DNA of 64,000 nucleotides, taken from the sequence record OP197928, one strand, 5' to 3'. Position numbers and translations under genes: made by a program. Within the stretch, counting starts at the first letter, position 1, and each line of letters begins with the position of its first letter. Positions 2,579 through 63,944 of this stretch are shown in pieces. The DNA comes from Shigella phage A2. The notes under the pieces are model-generated. The model was given only the letters and a program-made list of their open reading frames with translations. It had not been told where the DNA came from and ran no database searches.

Positions 2579-2914
2579 TTATTCTTCGTCTAGCTCGTCG
2601 ATAAAGGCGTCGATGGCCTCGACAACGGCATCATTGATAGCCAATAAAATAAAATCATCGTCAGTACCTTTAGAAGATTTTAAAGCATTGATATATGCTT
2701 GGTTGGCGAGTTCCCAAGCCTTTTTAAAATAAGGAGCTTCATCATCGGGGCCAACGAAACGTACGCCTTCAAAGATACGGTTAGCATAATCCAATACCCA
2801 CTGTACAGGCATGTTTTGAGAACGTTCGTTAAACTCTTTAAATTCCTTAGATTCAAAAAGCTCTTCAGGATAATCATTTCTATTACAAAAAGCTTTACTA
2901 AAGTTACGTTTCAT
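2579..2914 (-). CDS. hypothetical protein (e.6 position)
   Basis: 111-aa ORF in minus-strand early-gene array. Confidence 0.55.
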   Translation of the reverse strand: MKRNFSKAFCNRNDYPEELFESKEFKEFNERSQNMPVQWVLDYANRIFEGVRFVGPDDEAPYFKKAWELANQAYINALKSSKGTDDDFILLAINDAVVEAIDAFIDELDEE

Positions 2915-2958
2915 AATGTTTTCCTTGTGATGATAAGTCTATAGTAACGCCTTCATAC

Positions 2959-3123
2959 TTAGATGTAAACTATTTCAACATCGCCTTTTGCTGCTTTATA
3001 ACCTTCAGCCCAAGATACAACCGAGTTTTTATCTGAAGATTCAAATTCTGGCATTGGGCTTTCGCCAATGTTCACGCAGTATGTTTCTTCATTTTCGTCG
3101 AACCAAATAATTAAAGTAGTCAT
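2959..3123 (-). CDS. hypothetical small protein (54 aa; e.7 position)
   Basis: Hand-translated: ATG at 3123..3121, MTTLIIWFDENEETYCVNIGESPMPEFESSDKNSVVSWAEGYKAAKGDVEIVYI, stop at 2959; below ORF-track size cutoff. Confidence 0.45.
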   Translation of the reverse strand: MTTLIIWFDENEETYCVNIGESPMPEFESSDKNSVVSWAEGYKAAKGDVEIVYI

Positions 3124-3191
3124 TTATTTCTCCGTTTCTGTATTTGTTTTGATAAGTCTATAATAACACCATCCTTGGTGTTTGTACACAA

Positions 3192-3518
3192 TTATTTCAT
3201 ATTATTGAAATATTCTTCTGCGATTTCATCGTTATCATGGTAAACTTTAGAAGACAGTTTAACATAACCTTCAGCAGTGAACATATTAATCACAACCTTT
3301 ACAGTATACCACTGACCATCTTCATTACCCATTACTGCATAGGTTTCAAACATCGGATGGTCAGGACCGATAACTTTAATATCATTCACTGTACGACCGA
3401 AATCTTCTGAAACACATTTCATAAAGAAGTTGAACAGCTCACCGTAATTATCCATTTCATTCTCCAAGTTGTTTTCTGTATCAGTAGTTGATAGTTGTAT
3501 AGTACCATGGAAGGACAA
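3192..3518 (-). CDS. hypothetical protein (e.8 position)
   Basis: 108-aa ORF. Confidence 0.55.
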   Translation of the reverse strand: MSFHGTIQLSTTDTENNLENEMDNYGELFNFFMKCVSEDFGRTVNDIKVIGPDHPMFETYAVMGNEDGQWYTVKVVINMFTAEGYVKLSSKVYHDNDEIAEEYFNNMK

Positions 3519-3660
3519 GGATGTAAACTGTTTTGTGAAAAAATTTTTAAAAAGTTTTGGGGAATTCTAGGGCAGGGAGGGGAAATCAAAGGATAGGATA
3601 ATATATTATAAAGGGTAGAAACTAAATGATGCCTAGAGAGGCCCGGAAAGGCCTAGATAC

Positions 3661-3686
3661 CAAAAACCCCTATCATTTAGATAGGG
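3661..3686 (-). terminator. hairpin (ccctatc/gataggg stem) followed by U-tract on minus-strand RNA
   Basis: 7-bp perfect inverted repeat 3668-3674/3680-3686, loop attta; minus RNA continues GUUUUUG; lies just downstream of IP-like gene 3695..4258. Confidence 0.5.
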
Positions 3687-3694
3687 ATTTAAAA

Positions 3695-4258
3695 TTATTT
3701 ACCTAGTTTAGTTATTATAGCTTCTGCGGCAGCTTTTAGCTTAGATGCGGTGTTAATACGATTTTTAATTTCAGTATACGCATCGCCAAGAACATCAAGG
3801 CTATCAGAATAAACACTTACACTATTGCGTTCGCTATTTGAAATAGAACCTTTAGTTTTACGTTCAAAATCGGTGTACACGTCTTGAAGATCACGGGCTG
3901 CCTTCTTTGCATCATCCAATGCATCAAGAGCTTTATTCAAAGCATTAACATATTTTTTAGTGTCGAACATATTCTTAGAAATTTTAACAGGTGCACGTTC
4001 AGGAGTAGCTAAGGCAGATTTAGGAACCTGAGCGCCAGATGCCAATTTCTTAGAAATTTTGAAAAATGCTTTATTGAAACTATTTTCTTGACTCATCGTA
4101 AAAGAACTATTATCAATGTTATACATTTCAATAGCTTTAGCTTTCCACTTAAGAAAATCGCCACGGTCTTTTGGGTCCAAGTGGAAGAATACTTTAGTAA
4201 GATCTGCTTCAGATGGTAATTTTGCTGCTTCGGTTAAAAATTCGGCGTAGGTTTTCAT
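3695..4258 (-). CDS. internal-protein-like head protein with capsid targeting sequence (IP family)
   Basis: 187 aa; N-terminus MKTYAEFLTE|A matches the T4 internal-protein capsid targeting sequence (MKTYQEFIAE, gp21 protease site after L/I-x-E). Confidence 0.7.
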   Translation of the reverse strand: MKTYAEFLTEAAKLPSEADLTKVFFHLDPKDRGDFLKWKAKAIEMYNIDNSSFTMSQENSFNKAFFKISKKLASGAQVPKSALATPERAPVKISKNMFDTKKYVNALNKALDALDDAKKAARDLQDVYTDFERKTKGSISNSERNSVSVYSDSLDVLGDAYTEIKNRINTASKLKAAAEAIITKLGK

Positions 4259-4339
4259 TTAAAATCCTTGAAATAATTTATTGGTTATTAATTATTTATC
4301 ACGTTGTTATATGTAACAGCATTCTCCGAGCGATTCAAA

Positions 4340-4369
4340 CTAAAAAGCCCCAACCTTTCTGTCGGGGCT
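4340..4369 (-). terminator. rho-independent terminator downstream of IP-like gene
   Basis: Minus RNA: AGCCCCGACAGAAAGGUUGGGGCU followed by UUUUUAG; the 20-mer ctaaaaagccccaacctttc recurs at 4896-4915. Confidence 0.7.
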
Positions 4370-4376
4370 AAGAATG

Positions 4377-4850
4377 TTATTTAATTTGCTTAGCAGACCA
4401 AATGCGGTCTTTGATAATTTTTTGGATGTCTTCAACATACTCAAGAGAGTGAACATGTGGGTTATCTTTGAAACTATAAGCACGAGCTAGCTTTTGGCCT
4501 TCAGTTTTGATTACTAAAAGCTCTTTAAGGATAGCTTCATATTTGGAGATAATTCCTTTAACAATATTTTTCTCTTGTGCGACTTTAGGATCTGCTTTAG
4601 GAGCAGGTTTACCCGAAGCCTTTGCAAAAGCAGCGCCAGTAGCAACTAAACTTTTCCAGGCCATACTAACTGCATTTCCCGTAAATCCTTCCGCTTTCAT
4701 GTCGCGTGCGAACTGGAATCGCGATTCATCAGAAGCATCTTTGTAAGAATATTTACCCGCTGCAATGGCTGCTTTTGCGACAGCTTGAATTTCGGTGCTA
4801 GATGCTTCATTTAACACCGCTTCATTTAAAAATTGAGTATATGATTTCAT
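4377..4850 (-). CDS. internal-protein-like head protein with capsid targeting sequence (IP family)
   Basis: 157 aa; N-terminus MKSYTQFLNE|A = CTS-like; A/K-rich body. Confidence 0.7.
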   Translation of the reverse strand: MKSYTQFLNEAVLNEASSTEIQAVAKAAIAAGKYSYKDASDESRFQFARDMKAEGFTGNAVSMAWKSLVATGAAFAKASGKPAPKADPKVAQEKNIVKGIISKYEAILKELLVIKTEGQKLARAYSFKDNPHVHSLEYVEDIQKIIKDRIWSAKQIK

Positions 4851-4887
4851 CTTATTTCCTGTTTTAATTTGTAGATTTAATATACTT

Positions 4888-4895
4888 ATTTATAC
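4888..4895 (-). promoter_or_regulatory. T4-type late promoter TATAAATA (minus strand) upstream of IP-like gene 4377..4850
   Basis: plus-strand tatttata = TATAAATA on minus, about 40 nt upstream of ATG at 4850. Confidence 0.5.
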
Positions 4896-4925
4896 TAAAA
4901 AGCCCCAACCTTTCGGCTGGGGCTA
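4896..4925 (-). terminator. rho-independent terminator closing the tRNA/stable-RNA transcription unit
   Basis: Minus RNA: AGCCCCAGCCGAAAGGUUGGGGCU + UUUUUAG; near-duplicate of terminator at 4340-4369. Confidence 0.65.
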
Positions 4926-5235: not shown

Positions 5236-5586
5236 TTAATATTCTTTTAAAGCATCAATCTGTTCACGGCGTTTACGCCATAAATCAATTGCTTCATACG
5301 CAGATTCAGCATTTCGAATTAGCCGGCATTTATGTAAAGACTTATGATTTTGATATTGTGTAGATAATGGAATTGTATCTAAAAGGTCTTTACGATCAAA
5401 GTATTCGTAACCATCTAAACCAAATGAACGATTTTTGAGAAATTGCCAATGGCCAAATTCATTTTCAACATAAACATAATCTGCATGCTGATAAAGTAAA
5501 TTAATTACACGTTCAGAAATAACAGTATCATTATGATTAAAATAGAATGTTAAATCATGAACTACTAAATAAACATTACCTTTCAT
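5236..5586 (-). CDS. hypothetical protein embedded in the tRNA/stable-RNA operon
   Basis: 116-aa ORF between tRNA-Arg and the tRNA-like RNA; no recognisable motif (no GIY-YIG/HNH signature). Confidence 0.5.
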   Translation of the reverse strand: MKGNVYLVVHDLTFYFNHNDTVISERVINLLYQHADYVYVENEFGHWQFLKNRSFGLDGYEYFDRKDLLDTIPLSTQYQNHKSLHKCRLIRNAESAYEAIDLWRKRREQIDALKEY

Positions 5587-5602
5587 ATTTTCCTCACTTA
5601 AT

Positions 5603-5678
5603 TGGTCGAGGCAGTAGGGATCGAACCTACGACCTAGGACTTAGAAGGTCCTTGCTCTTCCTTCTGAGCTATGCCCCG
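5603..5678 (-). tRNA. tRNA-Arg (anticodon UCU)
   Basis: Hand-folded cloverleaf on minus strand: acceptor CGGGGCA/UGCCUCG, anticodon loop CUUCUAA, T-loop GGUUCGAUCC, encoded CCA. Confidence 0.85.
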
Positions 5679-5682
5679 TAAT

Positions 5683-5758
5683 TGGGGTGACCGATGGGAG
5701 TCGAACCCATGACTACGAGAATCACAATCTCGAGTTCTACCAACTGAACTACGGCCAC
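5683..5758 (-). tRNA. tRNA-His (anticodon GUG)
   Basis: Acceptor GUGGCCG/CGGUCAC, anticodon stem CGAGA/UCUCG, loop UUGUGAU, T-arm AUGGG-UUCGACU-CCCAU, discriminator C + CCA; no encoded G(-1). Confidence 0.75.
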
Positions 5759-5872
5759 ATTAATATCTACTCCAACAATCATGATGTCTTCACACGAAAT
5801 TAAGAGAAGAGTGATCAGTTCAACCCCTATAATCGCGTCAAGTAGATATTAATGTGACAGTTGTCACAAATT

Positions 5873-5947
5873 TGGCGGACGTGATAGGATTCGAACCTAT
5901 AACCAATCGCTTAACAGGCGATCGCTCTGCCATTGAGCTACACATCC
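5873..5947 (-). tRNA. tRNA-Asn (anticodon GUU)
   Basis: Acceptor GGAUGUG/CACGUCC, anticodon stem AUCGC/GCGAU, loop CUGUUAA, T-loop UUCGAAU, CCA encoded. Confidence 0.8.
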
Positions 5948-5951
5948 AAAT

Positions 5952-6038
5952 TGGTGGGGAGTGGTGGAGTCGAACCACCCGAGTCGCAATGACAATGGAT
6001 TTACAGTCCACACCGCTACCTCTACGGGATAACTCCCC
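5952..6038 (-). tRNA. tRNA-Tyr (anticodon GUA), class II with long variable arm
   Basis: 87 nt; acceptor GGGGAGU/ACUCCCC perfect, anticodon loop CUGUAAA, T-arm GGUGG-UUCGACU-CCACC, CCA encoded. Confidence 0.8.
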
Positions 6039-6051
6039 TTAATTCTTAATT

Positions 6052-6126
6052 TGGTGGCCCTGGGTGGAATTGAACCACCATCTGGCGATTATGAGTCGCT
6101 TGCTTGAACCTTCCAGCTACAGGGCC
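6052..6126 (-). tRNA. tRNA with CAU anticodon (Ile2/lysidine type as in T4, or elongator Met)
   Basis: Acceptor GGCCCUG/CAGGGCC, anticodon loop CUCAUAA, T-arm GGUGG-UUCAAUU-CCACC, CCA encoded. Confidence 0.8.
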
Positions 6127-6127
6127 T

Positions 6128-6203
6128 TGGTGCTGATTGACGGAATCGAACCGCCGACCTTCTCATTACAAGTGAGTTGCTCTACCTACTGAGCTAAATC
6201 AGC
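6128..6203 (-). tRNA. tRNA-Thr (anticodon UGU)
   Basis: Acceptor GCUGAUU/AAUCAGC, anticodon loop CUUGUAA, T-loop UUCGAUU, CCA encoded; 1-nt spacer to neighbour. Confidence 0.85.
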
Positions 6204-6208
6204 AAAAC

Positions 6209-6298
6209 TGGCGGAGGCGATAGGATTTGAACCTATGAGTCGCCGGAGCGACTGCCGGTTTTCAAGACCGGTGCATTAAACCACTCTGCCACGCCTCC
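6209..6298 (-). tRNA. tRNA-Ser (anticodon UGA), class II
   Basis: 90 nt; acceptor GGAGGCG/CGCCUCC, anticodon stem CCGGU/ACCGG loop CUUGAAA, long variable arm, T-loop UUCAAAU, CCA encoded. Confidence 0.85.
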
Positions 6299-6300
6299 AG

Positions 6301-6374
6301 TCTCCATACAAGGATTTGAACCTTGGACCTCCTGATCCCAAATCAGGCGCTCTACCAAACTGAGCTACACGGAG
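6301..6374 (-). tRNA. tRNA-Pro (anticodon UGG)
   Basis: Acceptor CUCCGUG/UAUGGAG (two G-U pairs), anticodon loop UUUGGGA, T-loop UUCAAAU; CCA not encoded. Confidence 0.8.
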
Positions 6375-6384
6375 TAAATTAAAT

Positions 6385-6458
<74 letters not shown>

Positions 6459-6463
6459 AAATT

Positions 6464-6550
6464 TGGTGCGAGAAGTGGGACTCGAACCCACAAGGAAATC
6501 ATTCCGCAGCATTTTAAGTGCTGTGCCTTTACCAATTTGACCATTCTCGC
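6464..6550 (-). tRNA. tRNA-Leu (anticodon UAA), class II
   Basis: 87 nt; acceptor GCGAGAA/UUCUCGC, anticodon stem CAGCA/UGCUG loop CUUAAAA, long variable arm, T-loop UUCGAGU, CCA encoded. Confidence 0.85.
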
Positions 6551-6551
6551 G

Positions 6552-6624
6552 CTGGGAATAAAGGACTCGAACCTTTGCATCCTGGAATCAAAATCCAGTG
6601 CCTTACCAACTTGGCTAATTCCCA
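6552..6624 (-). tRNA. tRNA-Gln (anticodon UUG)
   Basis: Acceptor UGGGAAU/AUUCCCA, anticodon stem CUGGA/UCCAG loop UUUUGAU, T-loop UUCGAGU; CCA not encoded; first gene of the array (promoter-proximal). Confidence 0.85.
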
Positions 6625-6721
6625 ATTATTAACAAAGGCTCTTAAGCAAGAACCCTTGATGATAGAGGGTATTAATCAGTGCGATATGAGTTAATAATAA
6701 CAAATAATTCTTAAAGCATAT

Positions 6722-7393: not shown

Positions 7394-7579
7394 CTATTCA
7401 CCTTTAGAAATTTTATCCATAACGATAGCAATTAAACCAATTAAAAATGCTACTACAAGTGAAAAAACATTTTCTGCTGTAGTCAATAATCCGCATATAA
7501 ATCCAACAAACATTGAAAAACTAAAAGCGGAAGCAGAAATTGCAATAGCAACATTTCGAATTAATTCACAACGTTTCAT
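7394..7579 (-). CDS. hypothetical small membrane protein
   Basis: 61 aa, almost entirely hydrophobic (AIAISASAFSFSMFVGFICGLL...VVAFLIGLIAIV). Confidence 0.45.
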   Translation of the reverse strand: MKRCELIRNVAIAISASAFSFSMFVGFICGLLTTAENVFSLVVAFLIGLIAIVMDKISKGE

Positions 7580-7593
7580 TTTATTCTCCTCGG

Positions 7594-7637
7594 TAGTTGA
7601 TAGGGTAATAGTATCACTACCCTATCTAAAAGTAAAC
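7594..7637 (-). promoter_or_regulatory. early-promoter-like module (GTTTAC -35, TACTAT -10) containing a 21-bp repeat
   Basis: Minus strand: GTTTAC-18 nt-TACTAT; contains ttgatagggtaatagtatcac (7597-7617), repeated exactly at 7897-7917. Confidence 0.4.
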
Positions 7638-7889
7638 TTATTTTTTACGAAAAATTGATTTATATTTATCAGCCCATTTCTCAATGACTTTTGCCGGGCC
7701 ATAGATAACAAAGTAATCGCCAAACTCTTCACCACCGAGTTGACCGAAATCATCTAATGCATCACGAAGAACTCCATGAGGCATTTCACCCATTTTATCT
7801 TTCTTGCCAGTGTAAATAAACTCAACTTTTACATCAGCAGTTTCAGCAATAAATTCTTGATACGTTTTCATTTTGTTCTCCAATTTCAC
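7638..7889 (-). CDS. ipI: internal protein I-like small head protein with capsid targeting sequence
   Basis: 83 aa; N-terminus MKTYQEFIAE|T is the T4 internal-protein CTS; position between tRNA region and 57B as for T4 ipI; body not confirmed as a T4 IPI ortholog. Confidence 0.7.
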   Translation of the reverse strand: MKLENKMKTYQEFIAETADVKVEFIYTGKKDKMGEMPHGVLRDALDDFGQLGGEEFGDYFVIYGPAKVIEKWADKYKSIFRKK

Positions 7890-7893
7890 ATTT

Positions 7894-7937
7894 GTTTTGA
7901 TAGGGTAATAGTATCACAACTAAAACCCTATGTAAAC
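7894..7937 (-). promoter_or_regulatory. early-promoter-like module upstream of ipI-like gene (second copy of repeat)
   Basis: Minus strand: GTTTAC-18 nt-TACTAT, just upstream of ATG at 7889; exact 21-bp repeat 7897-7917. Confidence 0.4.
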
Positions 7938-7949
7938 AACTTTGTGAAA

Positions 7950-8646
<697 letters not shown>

Positions 8647-57658: not shown

Positions 57659-59755
57659 TTATCCTTGAACGAACTTGTAAGGCATGTTTGCAATATCTAT
57701 GCAAGACGCAATAATTCCAAGAGATGATTCTACTTTTTGTTTAACATTTGATGAAACAAATGATGCAAAGTCAACTCTGTCTTCTATTTCAATATCACCT
57801 GTCATTGTAACTACTTCACCAGTTTCCATTAGACGGTCACCGTCATAAATTACTGATTCGGTGAGTTCTTCCGTAGTCATAACTTCAGCTTGAATGAGTT
57901 TTGTATTATTAGATGTTGTTCCGTCATTATTAGAAGCATCAGTTATTTTATTAACTTTGACCATCAATCCTCGTGGTAGAATAACTTCAGCTTCTGTTGC
58001 TATTCCGAGACTTCCTGGATATACAACATTAACTTTATGAGCTCCATCAATTGCCCATCCTATTTGAACTTTAACGTATTCTGGATTTTCTTTATACGCT
58101 CTTATTTCGTTTGGATTAATAGTTATTCCTTCTTCATTTTTATCAACTGTTAATTCATTACGAGCTTCTGGTTCTAAAAGACCAATGCCAGCATGTGTAA
58201 TTCCAAAACGTCCAAAAATGATAGGAGTTAAAGAAGTAGATACAAAATTTCTGAAATAGAACACTTTATTTTTAACTAGTGCTTCGTATATAGGAGCAGT
58301 CATACTTTGAGCACGATAAACTGTAATGCCTTCTGGTATACGGTCACCATTTTCAAAAGCTGAATCTAAGTTATTTATAGCAGATTCAATTTCTTTTTCA
58401 CTCATTACATCATATCGTTCTGGATTGTAGCGTCCTAAAAGAAGATTATTGATGTCAGTATATCCTGAACCGCAATACTCTCTAATGCCGCGCTTTTGTG
58501 ATGGAGTATATTTAGAACCATCACGGGCAATAGTAATATCAATCATTGGACCTGCACCAATTCCAGAAAAACTATAAATCATTCGTTTGAGGAATTTAGT
58601 TTTTGCTGCGTTCCAGGAATTTTTAGTTATTTCTTCCCAGACTTCATCTGGCTGCCCTTTACGAGTTTTATTATGTTTATCAAGCCAAGTATCTTTATAT
58701 TCTTCAAAGAATTTATTAATAGCTGCTGCATACTTCTCTAAACATTTTATTGAAGTAGTCGGTTCATTTTTAATCGCATTAAGAATTACATCTTTAATTT
58801 TTTCAGAAACTTCATTAACCTCACTTTTTGAAAAGAATTTATAGTCATAATGAAGTTCATCTGCGGTTCCTTCGGCAATAATTTTTGCTGCCTTAGTTTT
58901 AGAAGCTAATGAATTAATTCCAAGTTTCATTTCTTCTGCTTCGGGAATTAAAGGAGCGGTAGCAGGTTTATTGAAATTAGCTGCGGTAGATTCATATTTC
59001 TGGAATAATTCACTTTCAAATCTAGAAGATTCCAATGACTGACTTTGTGCAATTGCTCTACGGGAAATTTTAACTTTAACGATTACAGCTTGGTCAGAAC
59101 GTTTATCATTTTCTTGTGCAATAGATGCTGCAATTGCCTCATTTTTAGTTACTTGAGCTCCAGTATCTTTATTGATATAAACATCGCCGACTTTCGATTC
59201 AACTTTAGTAAAGAGCTCGGTGCTAATTTCCGGAACTCCTGGAATGTCTTCTAGTGATACATTTTTGCGATGTATAAGAATATATGCATACTTTTTATCA
59301 TAATCCCAGAGTTCCTTAAGAAGGACGTATCTGCCACCTGAACGACTGCGGATAAGTCTATCAGCAATAACTTGAATTTGTCGAGCTTGACCAGCAGTTT
59401 TAGACTTAAGAATACGAAGCATACAGGCATCAATTTTATACTGACGCATCGTCTGCATCGCAACAGTAAAAACTGAATTGATGTAATTAATTGGGCTTGG
59501 ACCGAGACCTTTTAATTTAGCAATTGAACCTTTAGCAGTTAATGTAAAAGGAACAATATGCATCATTTTATCGCCCATCTTTAAATCGCGATTAGTATCA
59601 CCTCCAGATGTATAGGTACATAAACGAAAGCCTGGTTGTTCAATTGCGTCATCAACATGAACTGAAAAAATTTGTGGTATTTTCTTCTTTGGATTTAAGT
59701 TTGTAATCGGAAGAGTAGTATCTTCGTCAAATAATTCTGTAATGAGTTCCATCAT
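57659..59755 (-). CDS. alt: Alt ADP-ribosyltransferase (paralog 2, adjacent to gene 30 side)
   Basis: 698 aa; shared N-terminal module; ART motifs YRAQ, NFVSTSL, EAEVILPRG; late promoter upstream; assignment of alt to this copy rather than paralog 1 is by position only. Confidence 0.8.
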   Translation of the reverse strand: MMELITELFDEDTTLPITNLNPKKKIPQIFSVHVDDAIEQPGFRLCTYTSGGDTNRDLKMGDKMMHIVPFTLTAKGSIAKLKGLGPSPINYINSVFTVAMQTMRQYKIDACMLRILKSKTAGQARQIQVIADRLIRSRSGGRYVLLKELWDYDKKYAYILIHRKNVSLEDIPGVPEISTELFTKVESKVGDVYINKDTGAQVTKNEAIAASIAQENDKRSDQAVIVKVKISRRAIAQSQSLESSRFESELFQKYESTAANFNKPATAPLIPEAEEMKLGINSLASKTKAAKIIAEGTADELHYDYKFFSKSEVNEVSEKIKDVILNAIKNEPTTSIKCLEKYAAAINKFFEEYKDTWLDKHNKTRKGQPDEVWEEITKNSWNAAKTKFLKRMIYSFSGIGAGPMIDITIARDGSKYTPSQKRGIREYCGSGYTDINNLLLGRYNPERYDVMSEKEIESAINNLDSAFENGDRIPEGITVYRAQSMTAPIYEALVKNKVFYFRNFVSTSLTPIIFGRFGITHAGIGLLEPEARNELTVDKNEEGITINPNEIRAYKENPEYVKVQIGWAIDGAHKVNVVYPGSLGIATEAEVILPRGLMVKVNKITDASNNDGTTSNNTKLIQAEVMTTEELTESVIYDGDRLMETGEVVTMTGDIEIEDRVDFASFVSSNVKQKVESSLGIIASCIDIANMPYKFVQG

Positions 59756-59775
59756 ATCCTCTCTAGTGTTTATTC

Positions 59776-59783
59776 TATTTATA
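59776..59783 (-). promoter_or_regulatory. late promoter TATAAATA (minus strand) for alt
   Basis: plus-strand tatttata 21-28 nt upstream of alt ATG (59755). Confidence 0.5.
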
Positions 59784-59788
59784 AAATT

Positions 59789-59806
59789 AAAGGCCCGAAG
59801 GCCTTT
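59789..59806 (-). terminator. UUCG-tetraloop hairpin between gene 30 operon and alt
   Basis: aaaggcc-cgaa-ggccttt (UUCG on minus RNA) with flanking A/T tracts. Confidence 0.55.
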
Positions 59807-59993
59807 AATAATCTATTGGTAAGAGAGTACGATATATTTCAAACTTTGGACCTTTTTCATAGGCATCAAATGTTTCTGTGAATTTATTATAAGCATATGC
59901 ATCTATAAATTCAATCATAATTTGTGATACAGAAGTAGAAACATCTCCACCTTCTTTTTGAGCAACGACAATTGTTTCTAAGTAAGCTTTCAT
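59805..59993 (-). CDS. hypothetical small protein
   Basis: 62-aa ORF overlapping the gene 30 stop by 4 nt. Confidence 0.5.
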   Translation of the reverse strand: MKAYLETIVVAQKEGGDVSTSVSQIMIEFIDAYAYNKFTETFDAYEKGPKFEIYRTLLPIDY

Positions 59994-61453
59994 AGACCAG
60001 TTACCTCATGAAAATCACCAAATACATCCTCGAATGTATTAGCTTTAGTTTTATCTTCACGTAAACGAATCGCAATTGGAAGAAATAATTTTACGTAATC
60101 AGTGCGGCCATCAGATTTTAACCAACCATTGCATTCGCACTCTAGAATTTTTCCAATATAATAATTTTGGTTTTCCATAATGCGAGTACGGTCAAGTTCA
60201 TGTGATTTTACGCCGGCTTTATCTTTTAAGCCTGAACCAGCATTTACTTTAATTTTTCCACACTCTGATTCAAGAATAAATCCACCTGCTTTAGTAGGGT
60301 CTTTACGGTGAGGATAAATTCCTACAATTTTTAAATCAACATCAATTACTTCTTTAAATTTATAGAGATTTTTTGAACGAGCATTTTCCCACAATCCATC
60401 GGTATTTTTGAGAATAATACCTTCAAGACCTTGGTCAATATACTTTTTATAAATTACCTTAGCTTCATCTAGGTTATTTACTACCTGGTTTTCAATTAAA
60501 ATTACTTTATCATATCCTGATGTCATTTGTTCTAGTTTAGAAAAACGTACATCATATTTTAAACGAAACGCCGGAAGACCGTATATTTCTACCAACGGGA
60601 CATAATCCCAGACCTGAAACTTCATGCATTCGGCTTCTTTTTCGGAAATGGTTCCTTTTAAGGATTTATTGGCGATTCCATTAGAAGCAGTACGAGATTC
60701 CGCTACTTCGGCGAATTCTTTAGCTTTACTAATTTCAGGATAAGCATCAAAAAGAAAATCTAGGCCTTCTGGTTCCTTTTTAACTTGCTCATGGTATACC
60801 AATTCGCCATCAATTAACACACCTTCTGGATGAATCTGGCGGGCTTCAGCAGTCATTTTGATTAATTCTTCCTTAAGAAGATCTAATCCTAGATATTCAT
60901 TACCAGCTCGTGATAAAAGACGAACATCATCTAATTCATCGCCTCGGACTTCAGCAAAACACCGAGCTCCATCTGCTTTTAACTGTGCAAAGGCTGGAAA
61001 TTTGATATTCTTATTAATGCCTTTTTCATCATAAGAACTTGCCAGCATTTGAGGTTGTTCAGGAATTAAACCTGGCCAAACTTTGTTTGCAATAGATACT
61101 GAAGCACCGCATTCAAGGTCTCGCATCATCACTCGACGCAAAACTTCAACATCATCCTTTTTACCATCGGTGATATATCCAGTCAATTCCTCAATTGCAG
61201 CATTTCCGGTCAATTTCCGAGTAGCTAACGTGAATTCAATGAAGTCAAGCATATCGGTAATGGTCAGCATTCCAAAACTCTGGGTAGCAATACCAGGTTT
61301 AGGCCATTTCTTGATATAATACTGTAACCCACGAGAATAAGTCAGACGATATACCCGTTTAAGCAATTCATTATCTTTATTCTTTTCAAGAATTGCTTGC
61401 TTCTGCTTAGTTGATCCAATAGATGCTATTTCATTCAGAATTTTAAGAATCAT
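59990..61453 (-). CDS. 30: ATP-dependent DNA ligase gp30
   Basis: 487 aa; adenylation motif KADGAR (motif I) and other nucleotidyltransferase motifs. Confidence 0.95.
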   Translation of the reverse strand: MILKILNEIASIGSTKQKQAILEKNKDNELLKRVYRLTYSRGLQYYIKKWPKPGIATQSFGMLTITDMLDFIEFTLATRKLTGNAAIEELTGYITDGKKDDVEVLRRVMMRDLECGASVSIANKVWPGLIPEQPQMLASSYDEKGINKNIKFPAFAQLKADGARCFAEVRGDELDDVRLLSRAGNEYLGLDLLKEELIKMTAEARQIHPEGVLIDGELVYHEQVKKEPEGLDFLFDAYPEISKAKEFAEVAESRTASNGIANKSLKGTISEKEAECMKFQVWDYVPLVEIYGLPAFRLKYDVRFSKLEQMTSGYDKVILIENQVVNNLDEAKVIYKKYIDQGLEGIILKNTDGLWENARSKNLYKFKEVIDVDLKIVGIYPHRKDPTKAGGFILESECGKIKVNAGSGLKDKAGVKSHELDRTRIMENQNYYIGKILECECNGWLKSDGRTDYVKLFLPIAIRLREDKTKANTFEDVFGDFHEVTGL

Positions 61454-61719
61454 TGCTCATCCTTCAAAGTTTGGTTTACAGCTCTATTATAAATCAATTC
61501 ATCATTAAGCTCAGGCAAAGACTTATGATATGTAGTTCTAACTTTATTTCCTTGCATCCAGTGCTTGATATAAATGAAACCTTGCTCTACACATTTTTTA
61601 AAAATTCGTTCGTCTTTTTGAGCTCGGAATTCTGGATTGCATCTAAAAAATTGATTTACGTGACCGTAATCACGTGTAGTATTACCTTCATTTTCATAAA
61701 TAGTGTGAACGACAAACAT
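61450..61719 (-). CDS. hypothetical protein (30.1 position)
   Basis: 89-aa ORF. Confidence 0.55.
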   Translation of the reverse strand: MFVVHTIYENEGNTTRDYGHVNQFFRCNPEFRAQKDERIFKKCVEQGFIYIKHWMQGNKVRTTYHKSLPELNDELIYNRAVNQTLKDEQ

Positions 61720-62582
61720 TAGAATGCTCCTTGGAAAATATTATCACCACTAGTAAATCTATTAAAATACCCTGCATCACCAGGCTTAGTATAACTCCAC
61801 GTATGGAATGGATTCATATGATACGGGTGTGTATAATATGGATTATATGGATGTGTATAATATGGATTATACGGATTAAATCCAGGAGTTCTCCAGGTAG
61901 TGTTCCAACGAAAAGAATCGTTTTTAACCATCTTCTCAATTACATCTTTTATAGCTTTTTCACTATCAAAACTTTCTTTATTTTCCTTCGGTGAAAAAAG
62001 CTTATTTTCTACATCATTCCATGTATAAACTCGCTGAGCGGTTTTTGGAATATTGTCACGCTCTCCTCGCGCCATCCAATAAACAGGAACATTTAATATT
62101 TCACTCGCATGATCGCAGTGGTGAGCAAGATCGTCAATATAACAAATTACGTTATATTTCTCTTTTGCCTTTTTGAATAACTCTTCTTTTGAAGAATCAT
62201 GACCACACATCATTACTTCTGAGAAGGCACCAGGAAAAAGAGCATTCAAATTAAATTGACGATTCAACAGAGCGTCAATAGAATCACCCAACGCTGTAAC
62301 AGCTACAAAATTATAATCTTCTTTTAATTTGTTAATTACGCACAGGGCGTCTTTATATGGAGACAAATAACGAATAAAATCTGAACGATTGTATTTTTCA
62401 ATTAACTTGACGCCAAGTTCTTCATCACAATTAAAGAGTTTACCCGGAGAAATAAATTTCTCATCTTGGATCATTTTTAAAATATGTTCTAACGGAAGAT
62501 TATATTTCTGAGCAAAATAAGGAAGGCCTGATTGCCAGCTTAAACATACTCCATCAATATCAGTTAAAATAGTAGGCTTCAT
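61719..62582 (-). CDS. HAD-superfamily hydrolase-like protein with C-terminal Tyr/Pro-rich repeat (30.2 position)
   Basis: 287 aa; N-terminal motif ILTDIDGV (HAD motif I DxDG); C-terminus NPYNPYYTHPYNPYYTHPY encoded by a tandem 24-bp DNA repeat. Confidence 0.65.
   Translation of the reverse strand: MKPTILTDIDGVCLSWQSGLPYFAQKYNLPLEHILKMIQDEKFISPGKLFNCDEELGVKLIEKYNRSDFIRYLSPYKDALCVINKLKEDYNFVAVTALGDSIDALLNRQFNLNALFPGAFSEVMMCGHDSSKEELFKKAKEKYNVICYIDDLAHHCDHASEILNVPVYWMARGERDNIPKTAQRVYTWNDVENKLFSPKENKESFDSEKAIKDVIEKMVKNDSFRWNTTWRTPGFNPYNPYYTHPYNPYYTHPYHMNPFHTWSYTKPGDAGYFNRFTSGDNIFQGAF
61827..61874. repeat. tandem 24-bp repeat (2 copies) inside 30.2-like gene
   Basis: gtgtgtataatatggattatatgg / atgtgtataatatggattatacgg. 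Confidence 0.7.
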
Positions 62583-63043
62583 AGAGAGTCTCTTAATAGA
62601 TTTAACACATCAATAAATTCAGCTTCGGTTAGTATTGTATCATCTTTTGTTAGACCACTAGCCATGCTGTGCTTCAAAACTTTTCCTTTCGAGGCTTGTA
62701 ATGCATCGCGAAAGCCCTTGTTTTGGAACGCTGCTTCAAAATATGCATTTGTGTATAATTCTTTCCATGCTTCGGAATATCTTGAAAACGGAGTTCCAAG
62801 CCAGAACAACGTGCCACGGTCCTGAGCTCTAGCATAAGCTCGTCCAGCTTGTTGGGCGGCAAGCCCGGATAACCCAAATATACGACGCTGTTGTTCAACA
62901 TTTTTCACCTTGCATCCTTGGAGGAATCCTTCGAGACCTCCAAATTGGATACCGTCCATAACAAAAGGCCATTGGGCGAAATTACTTAATGCACATGATG
63001 GCCATCTAAAATTGCTTCTAATCTCTAGCTCAGACATTTTCAA
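62579..63043 (-). CDS. NADAR/YbiA-like domain protein (30.3 position)
   Basis: 154 aa; ALSNFAQWPF...DG...LEGFLQGCK resembles the NADAR/YbiA signature (FSNFxxWP ... EHYFQAxK). Confidence 0.6.
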   Translation of the reverse strand: MKMSELEIRSNFRWPSCALSNFAQWPFVMDGIQFGGLEGFLQGCKVKNVEQQRRIFGLSGLAAQQAGRAYARAQDRGTLFWLGTPFSRYSEAWKELYTNAYFEAAFQNKGFRDALQASKGKVLKHSMASGLTKDDTILTEAEFIDVLNLLRDSL

Positions 63044-63245
63044 TACTTATAATTTCAACATCAGCCCAATGACCATAACTTGGTAAACGGTCTTCAATAG
63101 ATAATCCGCCATCATATTTAAGCATTTTAATTGTCATAATATATGGCTCTAAATGGTCTTCAGTGAGCGGAGAGACATCAGTCACACGATAAGTAACTTC
63201 GACCATTTCCGTGCCCAGTAATTTCTGGATTAATTTCTTAAACAT
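63030..63245 (-). CDS. hypothetical protein
   Basis: 71-aa ORF. Confidence 0.5.
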   Translation of the reverse strand: MFKKLIQKLLGTEMVEVTYRVTDVSPLTEDHLEPYIMTIKMLKYDGGLSIEDRLPSYGHWADVEIISIENV

Positions 63246-63249
63246 TTTA

Positions 63250-63537
63250 TTAAAATCTCATCTGAAAACCGTGTGATTTAACATTACCGCCGCCGATATC
63301 AGAAATGTTAATTTCACGCGCAATTGAAGGGTCAATGTCAATTTCACGATTAAGTTTAGTGATAGCTAAAGTATCGCGGCCATTTACAGTACGGAACTCT
63401 AAAGGGCAGACTACATTAACGTAGTTTTTAATTGATTCACTGGTAGGTTGCAAATGAGCAGGAAGGTCTTTAGGTGCCTTAGAGAAAACCACTTCACAGA
63501 AATTTTTGCGGGTATCAAAATAAGTAGTCATAAACAT
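63250..63537 (-). CDS. hypothetical protein
   Basis: 95-aa ORF. Confidence 0.5.
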   Translation of the reverse strand: MFMTTYFDTRKNFCEVVFSKAPKDLPAHLQPTSESIKNYVNVVCPLEFRTVNGRDTLAITKLNREIDIDPSIAREINISDIGGGNVKSHGFQMRF

Positions 63538-63553
63538 AGTATTTTCCTCAGTA

Positions 63554-63569
63554 AGGGGCCGAAGCCCCT
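63554..63569 (-). terminator. UUCG-tetraloop hairpin (third identical copy)
   Basis: aggggccgaagcccct followed by cattttatttt. Confidence 0.5.
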
Positions 63570-63578
63570 CATTTTATT

Positions 63579-63944
63579 TTAAATATCAAATTCGTTAAGA
63601 ACTACATCAAAGATTGCTTCAAGATGCTCAGGTTTAGCTCTGTTACTCAAAATATGACGAATCCAAGTTTTAACCAGAAGCTTGCGATTAACGCCATTCC
63701 AGCAAGGATGAGTCCCTAAATCGCGTTGACGAAAATCATCATCCAAAGCGATTTTAAAAGAAGAACCTTCTTTCGTGATTGAAACCGTGATGCCATTTTC
63801 AAATCGCATATAAACGTAGTTAGGAGTCATATACTGTTCAATTTCGCATACTGATCCATTTTGATGTTTCCAAAGGCAGATAGTATCAATAGAACCTGCA
63901 ATACCGTTAGAAACATATTTACGTTCAAAGTTGATGTAGTTCAT
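63579..63944 (-). CDS. hypothetical protein
   Basis: 121-aa ORF. Confidence 0.5.
   Translation of the reverse strand: MNYINFERKYVSNGIAGSIDTICLWKHQNGSVCEIEQYMTPNYVYMRFENGITVSITKEGSSFKIALDDDFRQRDLGTHPCWNGVNRKLLVKTWIRHILSNRAKPEHLEAIFDVVLNEFDI

Follow-up and report, generated by a model that had tools for sequence, protein, structure and literature searches.

In Shigella phage A2, the internal-protein (IP) gene ip6 is bracketed by two promoter/hairpin modules, and we believe that these modules very probably serve both early expression and the exchange of IP cassettes by homologous recombination. Two 21-mers on either side of the gene are the cores of the two copies of this composite module. Exchange of cassettes by recombination between the flanking modules had been proposed in an earlier note on this DNA, and the proposal is supported by the variable content of the slot between the modules, by insertion and deletion borders inside modules, by chimeric modules and by empty sites. 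The window (the whole stretch that was analysed, 64,000 nt of sequence record OP197928) comes from a Tequatrovirus; over 2 kb, it shares 99.9% identity with Escherichia phage JLBYU22. The genes are transcribed in the order gene 1 (dNMP kinase), 57A, 57B, ip6, trna.4, trna.3, trna.2 and tRNA cluster, all from the minus strand, and the 57B-trna.4 slot of the window is the T4 ipI locus. The features of the slot are collected in Table 1.

Table 1. Features of the 57B-trna.4 slot (window positions).
Feature	Position	Strand	Description
57B	7950..8405	(-)	Pfam Acb1 PF23474 (anti-CBASS), E 2.6e-60; conserved upstream border of the slot
Upstream extended imperfect palindrome	7881..7952 (72 nt)	(-)	spans the upstream module
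Upstream module	7872..7949	(-)	between the 57B stop codon and the ip6 ATG
Upstream module, parts	ATTTCACAAAGTT 7949-7937; GTTTAC 7937-7932; TG 7916-7915; TACTAT 7913-7908	(-)	
Upstream inner stem	ATAGGGT 7931-7925 with ACCCTAT 7906-7900	(-)	
Upstream 21-nt repeat copy	7897..7917	(-)	reads GTGATACTATTACCCTATCAA: TG, -10 TACTAT, hairpin 3' arm, start region
Upstream module, 3' part	inferred start ~A7901; GGAG 7881-7878	(-)	5'UTR with GGAG
ip6 internal-protein gene	7638..7871	(-)	77 aa + stop from the most likely start; leader MKTYQEFIAE
Downstream module	7580..7637	(-)	between the ip6 stop codon and the trna.4 ATG
Downstream module, parts	GTTTAC 7637-7632; TG 7616-7615; TACTAT 7613-7608	(-)	GTTTAC abuts the TAA stop
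Downstream hairpin	7599..7626	(-)	12-bp stem GAUAGGGUAGUG/UAUUACCCUAUC, loop AUAC, encloses the -10; RNA -16.4 kcal/mol, z -4.3
Downstream 21-nt repeat copy	7597..7617	(-)	reads GTGATACTATTACCCTATCAA; contents as in the upstream copy
Downstream module, 3' part	inferred start ~A7601	(-)	GAGGAG Shine-Dalgarno sequence
trna.4	7394..7579	(-)	61-aa predicted membrane protein; conserved downstream border of the slot

The 64-kb window contains two exact copies of TTGATAGGGTAATAGTATCAC, with 300 nt from start to start, and the direct repeats reported in the earlier note are therefore real and exact. When up to three mismatches were allowed, no further copy was found in the 64-kb window (chance expectation 0.02), and none of 100 shuffles contained two or more copies. 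The ungapped likeness of the two copies reaches 41 nt at 78%, and on the minus strand GTTTAC sits 14 nt upstream of each GTGATACTATTACCCTATCAA. A tandem duplication of a 300-nt unit was also considered and rejected, because outside the modules the unit has no similarity to its neighbours.

In order, a module has ATTTCACAAAGTT in many cases, and then a T4-type early promoter, a stem-loop, and a short 5'UTR with a Shine-Dalgarno sequence ending in AATAAAATGAAA; the -10 lies within the loop and the 3' arm of the stem-loop. Both repeat copies contain TGATACTAT, an extended -10 (TGn) with T-12, A-11 and T-7, in which TG stands one base ahead of the hexamer. The spacer between GTTTAC and TACTAT is 18 nt in both modules. 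If +1 is 7901 or 7601, that is, 7 nt past the hexamer, GTTTAC occupies -36 to -31, where the T4 early-promoter consensus likewise puts it (Nolan et al. 2006, PMC1524935), and T4 early promoters have been described as being of the UP/-35/TGn/-10 type (Hinton 2010, PMC2988021). The resemblance to T4 early promoters that had been noticed for the two minus-strand modules thus holds for spacing as well as for consensus positions. The pattern GTTTAC-N13-17-TGNTANNAT was found four times in the window against 0.13 expected. Upstream of the -35, where an A/T-rich UP-like segment is expected in T4 early promoters, the upstream module has TTAAAATAATTTCACAAAGTT, and in the downstream module the coding end of ip6 (CGTAAAAAATAA) abuts GTTTAC. 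A generic sigma-70 scan called the upstream module only (TTTACA-17-TACTAT with TG, a 9/12 match to TTGACA/TATAAT); the downstream module is missing from that scan because it matches the plain sigma-70 consensus at 8/12 positions by hand count. The late-promoter motif TATAAATA was not found in the slot, although Ip6 must be present for head assembly. As far as can be read from the sequence, the modules have the features of T4 early promoters, and early activity is predicted for them.

Some of the identity between the two copies can be traced to the promoter itself. A hairpin-less early-promoter-like site at 3499-3528 has part of the 21-mer (TGaTACTAT ... TATCAA) and has TTTCACAAA..GTTTAC..TGGTACTAT..CTATCAACTAC in common with the 21-mer module, so some of the identity reflects promoter constraint rather than recent common descent. 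This fits a reading in which the slot simply holds two independent T4 early promoters that resemble each other through promoter/hairpin constraint and play no role in gene exchange. The combination of TG-TACTAT and CTATCAAC, present at 3499-3528, also occurs in many pattern-matched sites of T4-like contigs, and the positions that are invariant across phages are all promoter or start-region positions. We consider constraint without exchange unlikely, in view of the footprints of exchange described below.

Each promoter overlaps a hairpin. For the upstream module, 93 nt of RNA gave a folding energy of -27.8 kcal/mol (z -6.4); the hairpin here shares its 3' arm with the downstream module, and its 5' arm is shifted 6 nt upstream. 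Module stems are AT-rich, and the z-scores of module hairpins range from -3.4 to -6.4. Among 26 distinct slot modules, 23 (88%) fold at or below -8 kcal/mol, with a median of -13.3, compared with 21% of 113 pattern-matched early-promoter-like 41-mers from IMG/VR, with a median of -3.5 (Mann-Whitney p = 7e-10 for hairpin energy). These 113 sequences are among the matches listed of a permissive promoter pattern and serve the comparison of hairpin strength only; since some of them are slot modules, the contrast is a conservative one. In ten modules that have the register of the window's downstream hairpin, 91.7% of the cells are paired and 6 of the 12 pairs differ on both sides, for example in GATAGGGTA/TACCCTATC, GATGAGGTA/TACCTCATC and GATAGAACTA/TAGTTCTATC. 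The covariation score of the stem was reached by none of 500 shuffles. Since the sample is small (ten modules) and was picked by register, this compensatory variation is supportive, but not conclusive, of a hairpin stem that is under selection.

Stems that are stable and covary could also point to an element that is mainly a terminator or an RNA-processing hairpin copied at gene ends, with incidental promoter-like hexamers; rho-independent terminators had been annotated by one submitter's software at the corresponding sites of phage SA79RD, and the PeSLs (promoter-early stem-loops) of RB49/phi1 have stem-loops with terminator activity (PMC2839356). In the window, however, the intervals 7590-7640 and 7880-7950 gave no intrinsic terminator call, and no U-run follows either stem. 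In the 13 aligned modules, GTTTAC, TG, TA...T (first, second and last base of the -10) and ATCAA are invariant, whereas the stem sequence varies, and the spacing equals the T4 early-promoter coordinates exactly. We therefore regard a hairpin with incidental hexamers as very unlikely, and keep to modules in which promoter and hairpin are combined.

The 57B-trna.4 intervals of T4, T6, GiZh, SholemSchwarzbard, PP01, RB15 (Z35082), slur04, CE1, ESh33, Pu-Krd-SF7, Geo and FT were compared, together with the interval beside trna.4 or its homologue from Mosigvirus, Dhakavirus, Gaprivervirus and Jiaodavirus phages; for RZ, a stretch without a recognised 57B was used. In these related T4-like loci the slot between the modules holds zero, one, two or four IP genes, and the repeats therefore enclose a content that varies among relatives. 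IP genes are absent from the slot in slur04 and vB_EcoM_FT. One is present in the window (ip6), in T4, CE1, Geo and ESh33 (ipI), and in PP01 (ip5). Two are present in T6, GiZh and SholemSchwarzbard (ip5 and ip6), in Pu-Krd-SF7 and MX01 (ip9 and ip7), and in LF82-7 (an ipI-like gene and ip7), and four in RB15 (ip5, ip9, ip7 and ip8) and in RZ. The 621-bp locus was matched by 990 phage records, of which just 229 covered at least 80% of it.

A module was found at each junction in the Tequatrovirus, Mosigvirus, Jiaodavirus and MX01 loci, with a constant length from GTTTAC to ATCAA; one junction of IME08 (next to 57B, poorly annotated) was left out. In RZ, three of the five junctions have no module. 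The other IP locus of this phage lineage (denV-Ip10-Ip4, JLBYU22 59-63.6 kb) has no modules between its genes, and its junctions are 9-16 nt long. Together, the module-free Ip10/Ip4 locus and the RZ junctions indicate that modules are not required for the clustering of IP genes. The modules themselves are mosaics, in which ATTTCACAAAGTT is present or absent and several stem types and four 5'UTR types occur, and the 5'UTR types are re-assorted relative to the downstream gene. For example, the UTR of ip6 in the window stands before ip9 in Pu-Krd-SF7 and before trna.4 in ESh33 and RB15.

The borders of insertions and deletions were mapped by an explicit breakpoint scan, whose outcome can be affected by strain SNPs next to the repeats; MAFFT global pairwise alignment misplaced large gaps. 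The borders map inside modules, and the comparisons do not tell gain from loss. The empty site of slur04 is a single module, the left part of which is that of the window's upstream module and the right part (UTR and trna.4) that of the downstream module; the window has an extra 300 nt relative to slur04, with the best junction at the left edge of the 21-mer. In the empty site of FT, a T4-type upstream module and its UTR are joined straight to trna.4 at AATAAAATGAAA. When T4 was compared with slur04, the ipI cassette (367 nt) was bounded by the 22-nt direct repeat ATTTCACAAAGTTGTTTACATA. When SholemSchwarzbard was compared with the window, the ip5 cassette (330 nt) was bounded by GATTTAAAATAATTTCACAAAGTTGTTTAC, which takes in the final codons of 57B and of ip5; in ip5-bearing phages, the repeated segment includes the last 57B codons (GAT TTA AAA TAA). 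The patches shared between modules are ATTTCACAAAGTTGTTTAC, GTGATACTATTA... and AATAAAATGAAA. Between ip9 and ip7, both RB15 and Pu-Krd-SF7 have a chimeric module, in which a GATAGGGTA-type left arm is joined to a TATCTCATC-type right arm and the hairpin no longer forms (-4.2 and -1.9 kcal/mol). Chimeric arms with loss of the stem are the expected product of a crossover within GTGATACTATTA.

These footprints are what speaks against constraint as the whole explanation. In several independent phage pairs the insertion and deletion borders coincide with module segments, the two empty sites differ from each other and are both exact fusions of modules, the chimeric modules have mismatched hairpin arms, and one and the same UTR variant is found ahead of ip6, ip9 or trna.4.

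A site-specific, integron-like or nuclease-driven cassette system, with the hairpin as the recognition site of a recombinase or endonuclease, would also place a conserved stem-loop with sequence-independent pairing at the cassette borders, and small circles between PeSLs have been detected in RB49/phi1 (Arbiol et al., PMC2839356). We consider such a system extremely improbable. No recombinase gene was found in or beside the slot, and the crossover points differ from event to event (the -35 segment, the -10 segment and the SD/ATG segment), which is typical of homology-driven exchange. Crossovers in at least three different shared patches argue for general homologous rather than site-specific recombination. 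Studies have shown that T4 deletes and amplifies DNA through microhomologies of 6-10 bp within a few passages (PMC9391042); module patches of 12-31 nt are therefore ample for exchange.

The cassette between the repeats had been described as an ipI-like gene with an 83-aa ORF bearing a capsid-targeting sequence. The leader and the bracketing by the repeats were confirmed, but the length was not. The 83-aa ORF from GTG 7889 is the mechanical ORF and the JLBYU22 annotation, whereas ip6 most likely starts at ATG 7871 and encodes 77 aa. We prefer this start because it is preceded by GGAG, because Ip6 of T6, GiZh and SholemSchwarzbard has 77 aa, because the flagged ORF matches phrog_8111 'internal virion protein' (E 3.9e-51) over profile positions 1-77 of 77, and because GTG 7889 lies within the 5'UTR, about 12 nt past the predicted transcript start. 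The description as ipI-like is right for the position and the capsid-targeting leader, but not for the mature protein, which is Ip6 and unrelated to IPI: in BLASTP against T4 IPI, residues 1-16 alone align, and these are the leader. Ip6 is 79% identical to Ip6 of T6 and matches 230 phage records. Cleavage by the prohead protease is predicted after Glu10 (MKTYQEFIAE followed by T), and every IP ORF of the slot has a capsid-targeting leader of the Ip6 type; the protein is presumably targeted to the capsid and injected with the DNA.

No Pfam family and no sequence relative in the PDB were found for Ip6. Its single-sequence AlphaFold model (pLDDT 73.9) has a small beta-alpha-beta-beta-alpha-beta shape; no PDB fold matched it at E <= 0.001, with weak ferredoxin-like or RRM-like matches. 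In BFVD, the strongest match was Ip6 of phage VR7 (E 4.3e-12), followed by an unnamed protein (E 1.8e-4). Because the PDB matches are weak and the sole strong BFVD match is Ip6, the fold gives no functional lead. Ip1, Ip2 and Ip3 each block a different GmrSD enzyme (PMC12373910). By analogy with these proteins, the most likely target of Ip6 is a host type IV (GmrSD-like) restriction enzyme, which it would inhibit.

Judging from the anatomy of the modules and from published T4 work, we propose that each module fires as a sigma-70 immediate-early promoter, by which the cassette downstream of it, as well as the trna.4/tRNA operon behind, would be expressed at once. RNA started at a module would carry just the 3' arm of the hairpin, and both arms would be present in upstream read-through RNA alone; the stem would therefore act on those transcripts, where it may form a 3'-end barrier or attenuator that insulates the cassettes. 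The near-identical patches of 12-31 nt would let the very active homologous recombination of T4 cross over occasionally between modules. Within one genome, such a crossover would delete or duplicate a cassette, and between co-infecting phages it would swap one. Ip6 itself would be packaged by means of its leader, cleaved after Glu10, injected, and would probably block a type IV restriction enzyme.

The stem seems to be preserved in several genera through compensatory changes but does not have the make-up of a canonical terminator, and it may therefore be an active element instead of passive homology, either a focus of recombination or a promoter-silencing switch. We hold this to be a rather unlikely variant. 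The hairpin or cruciform might draw a T4 structure-specific nuclease or stall replication; if so, recombination would be focused on the cassette borders, and the slot would be an integrase-free, integron-like platform. As a switch, it might allow read-through transcription to silence the local promoter.

If exchange between modules is accepted, this lytic phage holds swappable injected anti-restriction proteins next to another anti-defence gene, acb1. Each cassette would bring or meet a strong early promoter, as predicted above, and the repeated modules would double as landing pads for recombination. Given the work on Ip1, Ip2 and Ip3 from 2022 to 2025, the remaining members of the cassette pool are candidates for new anti-restriction specificities.

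Several known systems resemble the slot in part. With T4 early promoters, the modules share GTTTAC at -36 to -31, a GT-rich stretch or TGn before -12, T-12, A-11 and T-7, and possibly an AT-rich upstream segment, but the majority of sequences resembling T4 early promoters have no strong hairpin over the -10 (21% versus 88% at or below -8 kcal/mol). T4 IPI and its mature form IPI*, a GmrSD inhibitor, share with Ip6 the slot, the type of N-terminal capsid-targeting leader and a similar size. Ip6 differs from IPI* in that the likeness is confined to the first 16 residues and that Ip6 has no solved relative; with no homology of its mature chain to IPI* by BLASTP, Ip6 does not belong to the IPI family. 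Its homology to Ip6 of T6 and related phages extends over the full length and places it in the Ip6 family, and like T4 internal proteins it has an N-terminal leader that ends in an (L/I)-x-E protease site. Integron cassettes with their attC hairpins are likewise small, promoter-dependent cassettes with structured repeats on a fixed platform, in variable number and order. In contrast, the slot has no integrase, its crossover positions vary, each cassette brings or meets its own promoter, and the crossover positions suggest that exchange proceeds by general homologous recombination.

The PeSLs of RB49/phi1 are also composites of an early promoter and a stem-loop that flank small non-essential ORFs in hyperplastic regions (PMC2839356), and modular shuffling has been proposed and partly shown for them (Arbiol et al. 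2010, PMC2839356). They have sigma-70 consensus hexamers and GC-rich terminator stems, whereas the promoter of the slot modules is of the T4 type, GTTTAC/TGn/TACTAT, and their stems are weaker, AT-rich and not followed by a U-tract. With neither sigma-70 consensus hexamers nor a GC-rich terminator stem in their sequence, the slot modules would not be classed as PeSLs, and Arbiol et al. term the T-even IP elements analogs, not homologs, of PeSLs (PMC2839356).

The closest system is the set of elements that flank the T-even IP loci, reported by Repoila, Tetart, Bouet and Krisch in 1994 (EMBO J 13:4181) and known here as related in PMC2839356 and PMC12373910. According to PMC2839356, these elements are T4 early promoters with weaker AT-rich stem-loops that may lie behind the plasticity of the loci. 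The RB15 sequence Z35082, deposited with Repoila 1994, contains exactly the modules of this study. As far as these sources relate, the two agree in the 57B-trna.4 locus and the gene family ip5-ip9 including Ip6, in a T4 early promoter with an overlapping inverted repeat that flanks IP ORFs on both sides, and in a proposed part in recombinational shuffling, with IP ORFs that vary in number, order and identity. The architecture is thus already published (Repoila et al. 1994, as restated in PMC2839356). What this study contributes, from modern genomes, are empty sites of two kinds, modules with chimeric arms, and statistics on covariation. Compared with the elements of Repoila et al., as they are described in these sources, the modules of the window show no essential difference, and the window adds one allele state, ip6 alone, to the known architecture.

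Two genes lie between e.8 and rnaC in the window, and their products carry capsid-targeting-type leaders, MKTYAEFLTEA in the 187-aa protein and MKSYTQFLNEA in the 157-aa protein. Gene content at this site varied from none in T4 and ACG-C40 to one in NBG2 and two in the window, and both genes were found together in only 127 of the 762 matching records. The two proteins belong to phrog_2280 ('unknown function') and were annotated as 'hypothetical' in the records examined. The cassettes are bordered by duplicates of the rnaC terminator, CTTAGCCCC..GAAAGGTTGGGGCTTTTT. Because Arbiol 2010 (PMC2839356) describes IP genes as absent outside the two known loci, the e.8-rnaC site may represent a third locus for internal proteins, one that is under-described.

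Features of the e.8-rnaC site, the tRNA cluster and the border of the IP slot
Feature	Window position	Strand	Location or detail
Early-promoter-like site	3499-3528	-	upstream of e.8; TTTCACAAAACAGTTTAC...TGGTACTAT...CTATCAACTACTGA
187-aa gene	3695-4258	-	between e.8 and rnaC
157-aa gene	4377-4850	-	between e.8 and rnaC
Cassette flanks	4339-4371 and 4893-4925
Late-promoter motif	4887-4894		157-aa gene; TATAAATA
116-aa ORF	5236-5586		adjoins tRNA-Arg
tRNA cluster	~5590-6700	-
57B	7950-8405	-	upstream border of the IP slot

The early-promoter-like site near e.8 has the flanking segments in common with the IP-slot modules but lacks their hairpin. The mechanical start of the e.8 ORF, TTG at 3518, overlaps this site and is probably wrong.

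The tRNA cluster of the window is unlike that of T4. In the near-identical JLBYU22 record, 11 tRNAs were annotated, including two tRNA-His, a Tyr and a Met, and no segB was shown. The tRNA cluster of SholemSchwarzbard has a homing endonuclease gene within it.

At the IP slot, the neighbouring 57B matched Pfam Acb1, an anti-CBASS nuclease (E 2.6e-60), and therefore the cassette slot directly adjoins another anti-defence gene. Many records label 57B as 'RNA ligase' or 'phosphodiesterase'. Empty slots were found in two versions, at 500-574 of the vB_EcoM_FT locus and at 1000-1071 of the slur04 locus. Each consists of a single module, but the junctions differ, with the fusion point in the -10/hairpin segment in one version and in the SD/ATGAAA segment in the other. 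The two versions imply either independent loss events or ancestral sites of two kinds.

The second IP locus of this phage lineage consists of denV, Ip10 and Ip4 in that order (2744-3977 within JLBYU22 59000-63600), where the junctions are only 9 and 16 nt and no promoter-hairpin modules were found between the three genes. In this the locus is unlike the ipI slot. The e.8-rnaC cassettes are bracketed by terminator copies instead of promoters.
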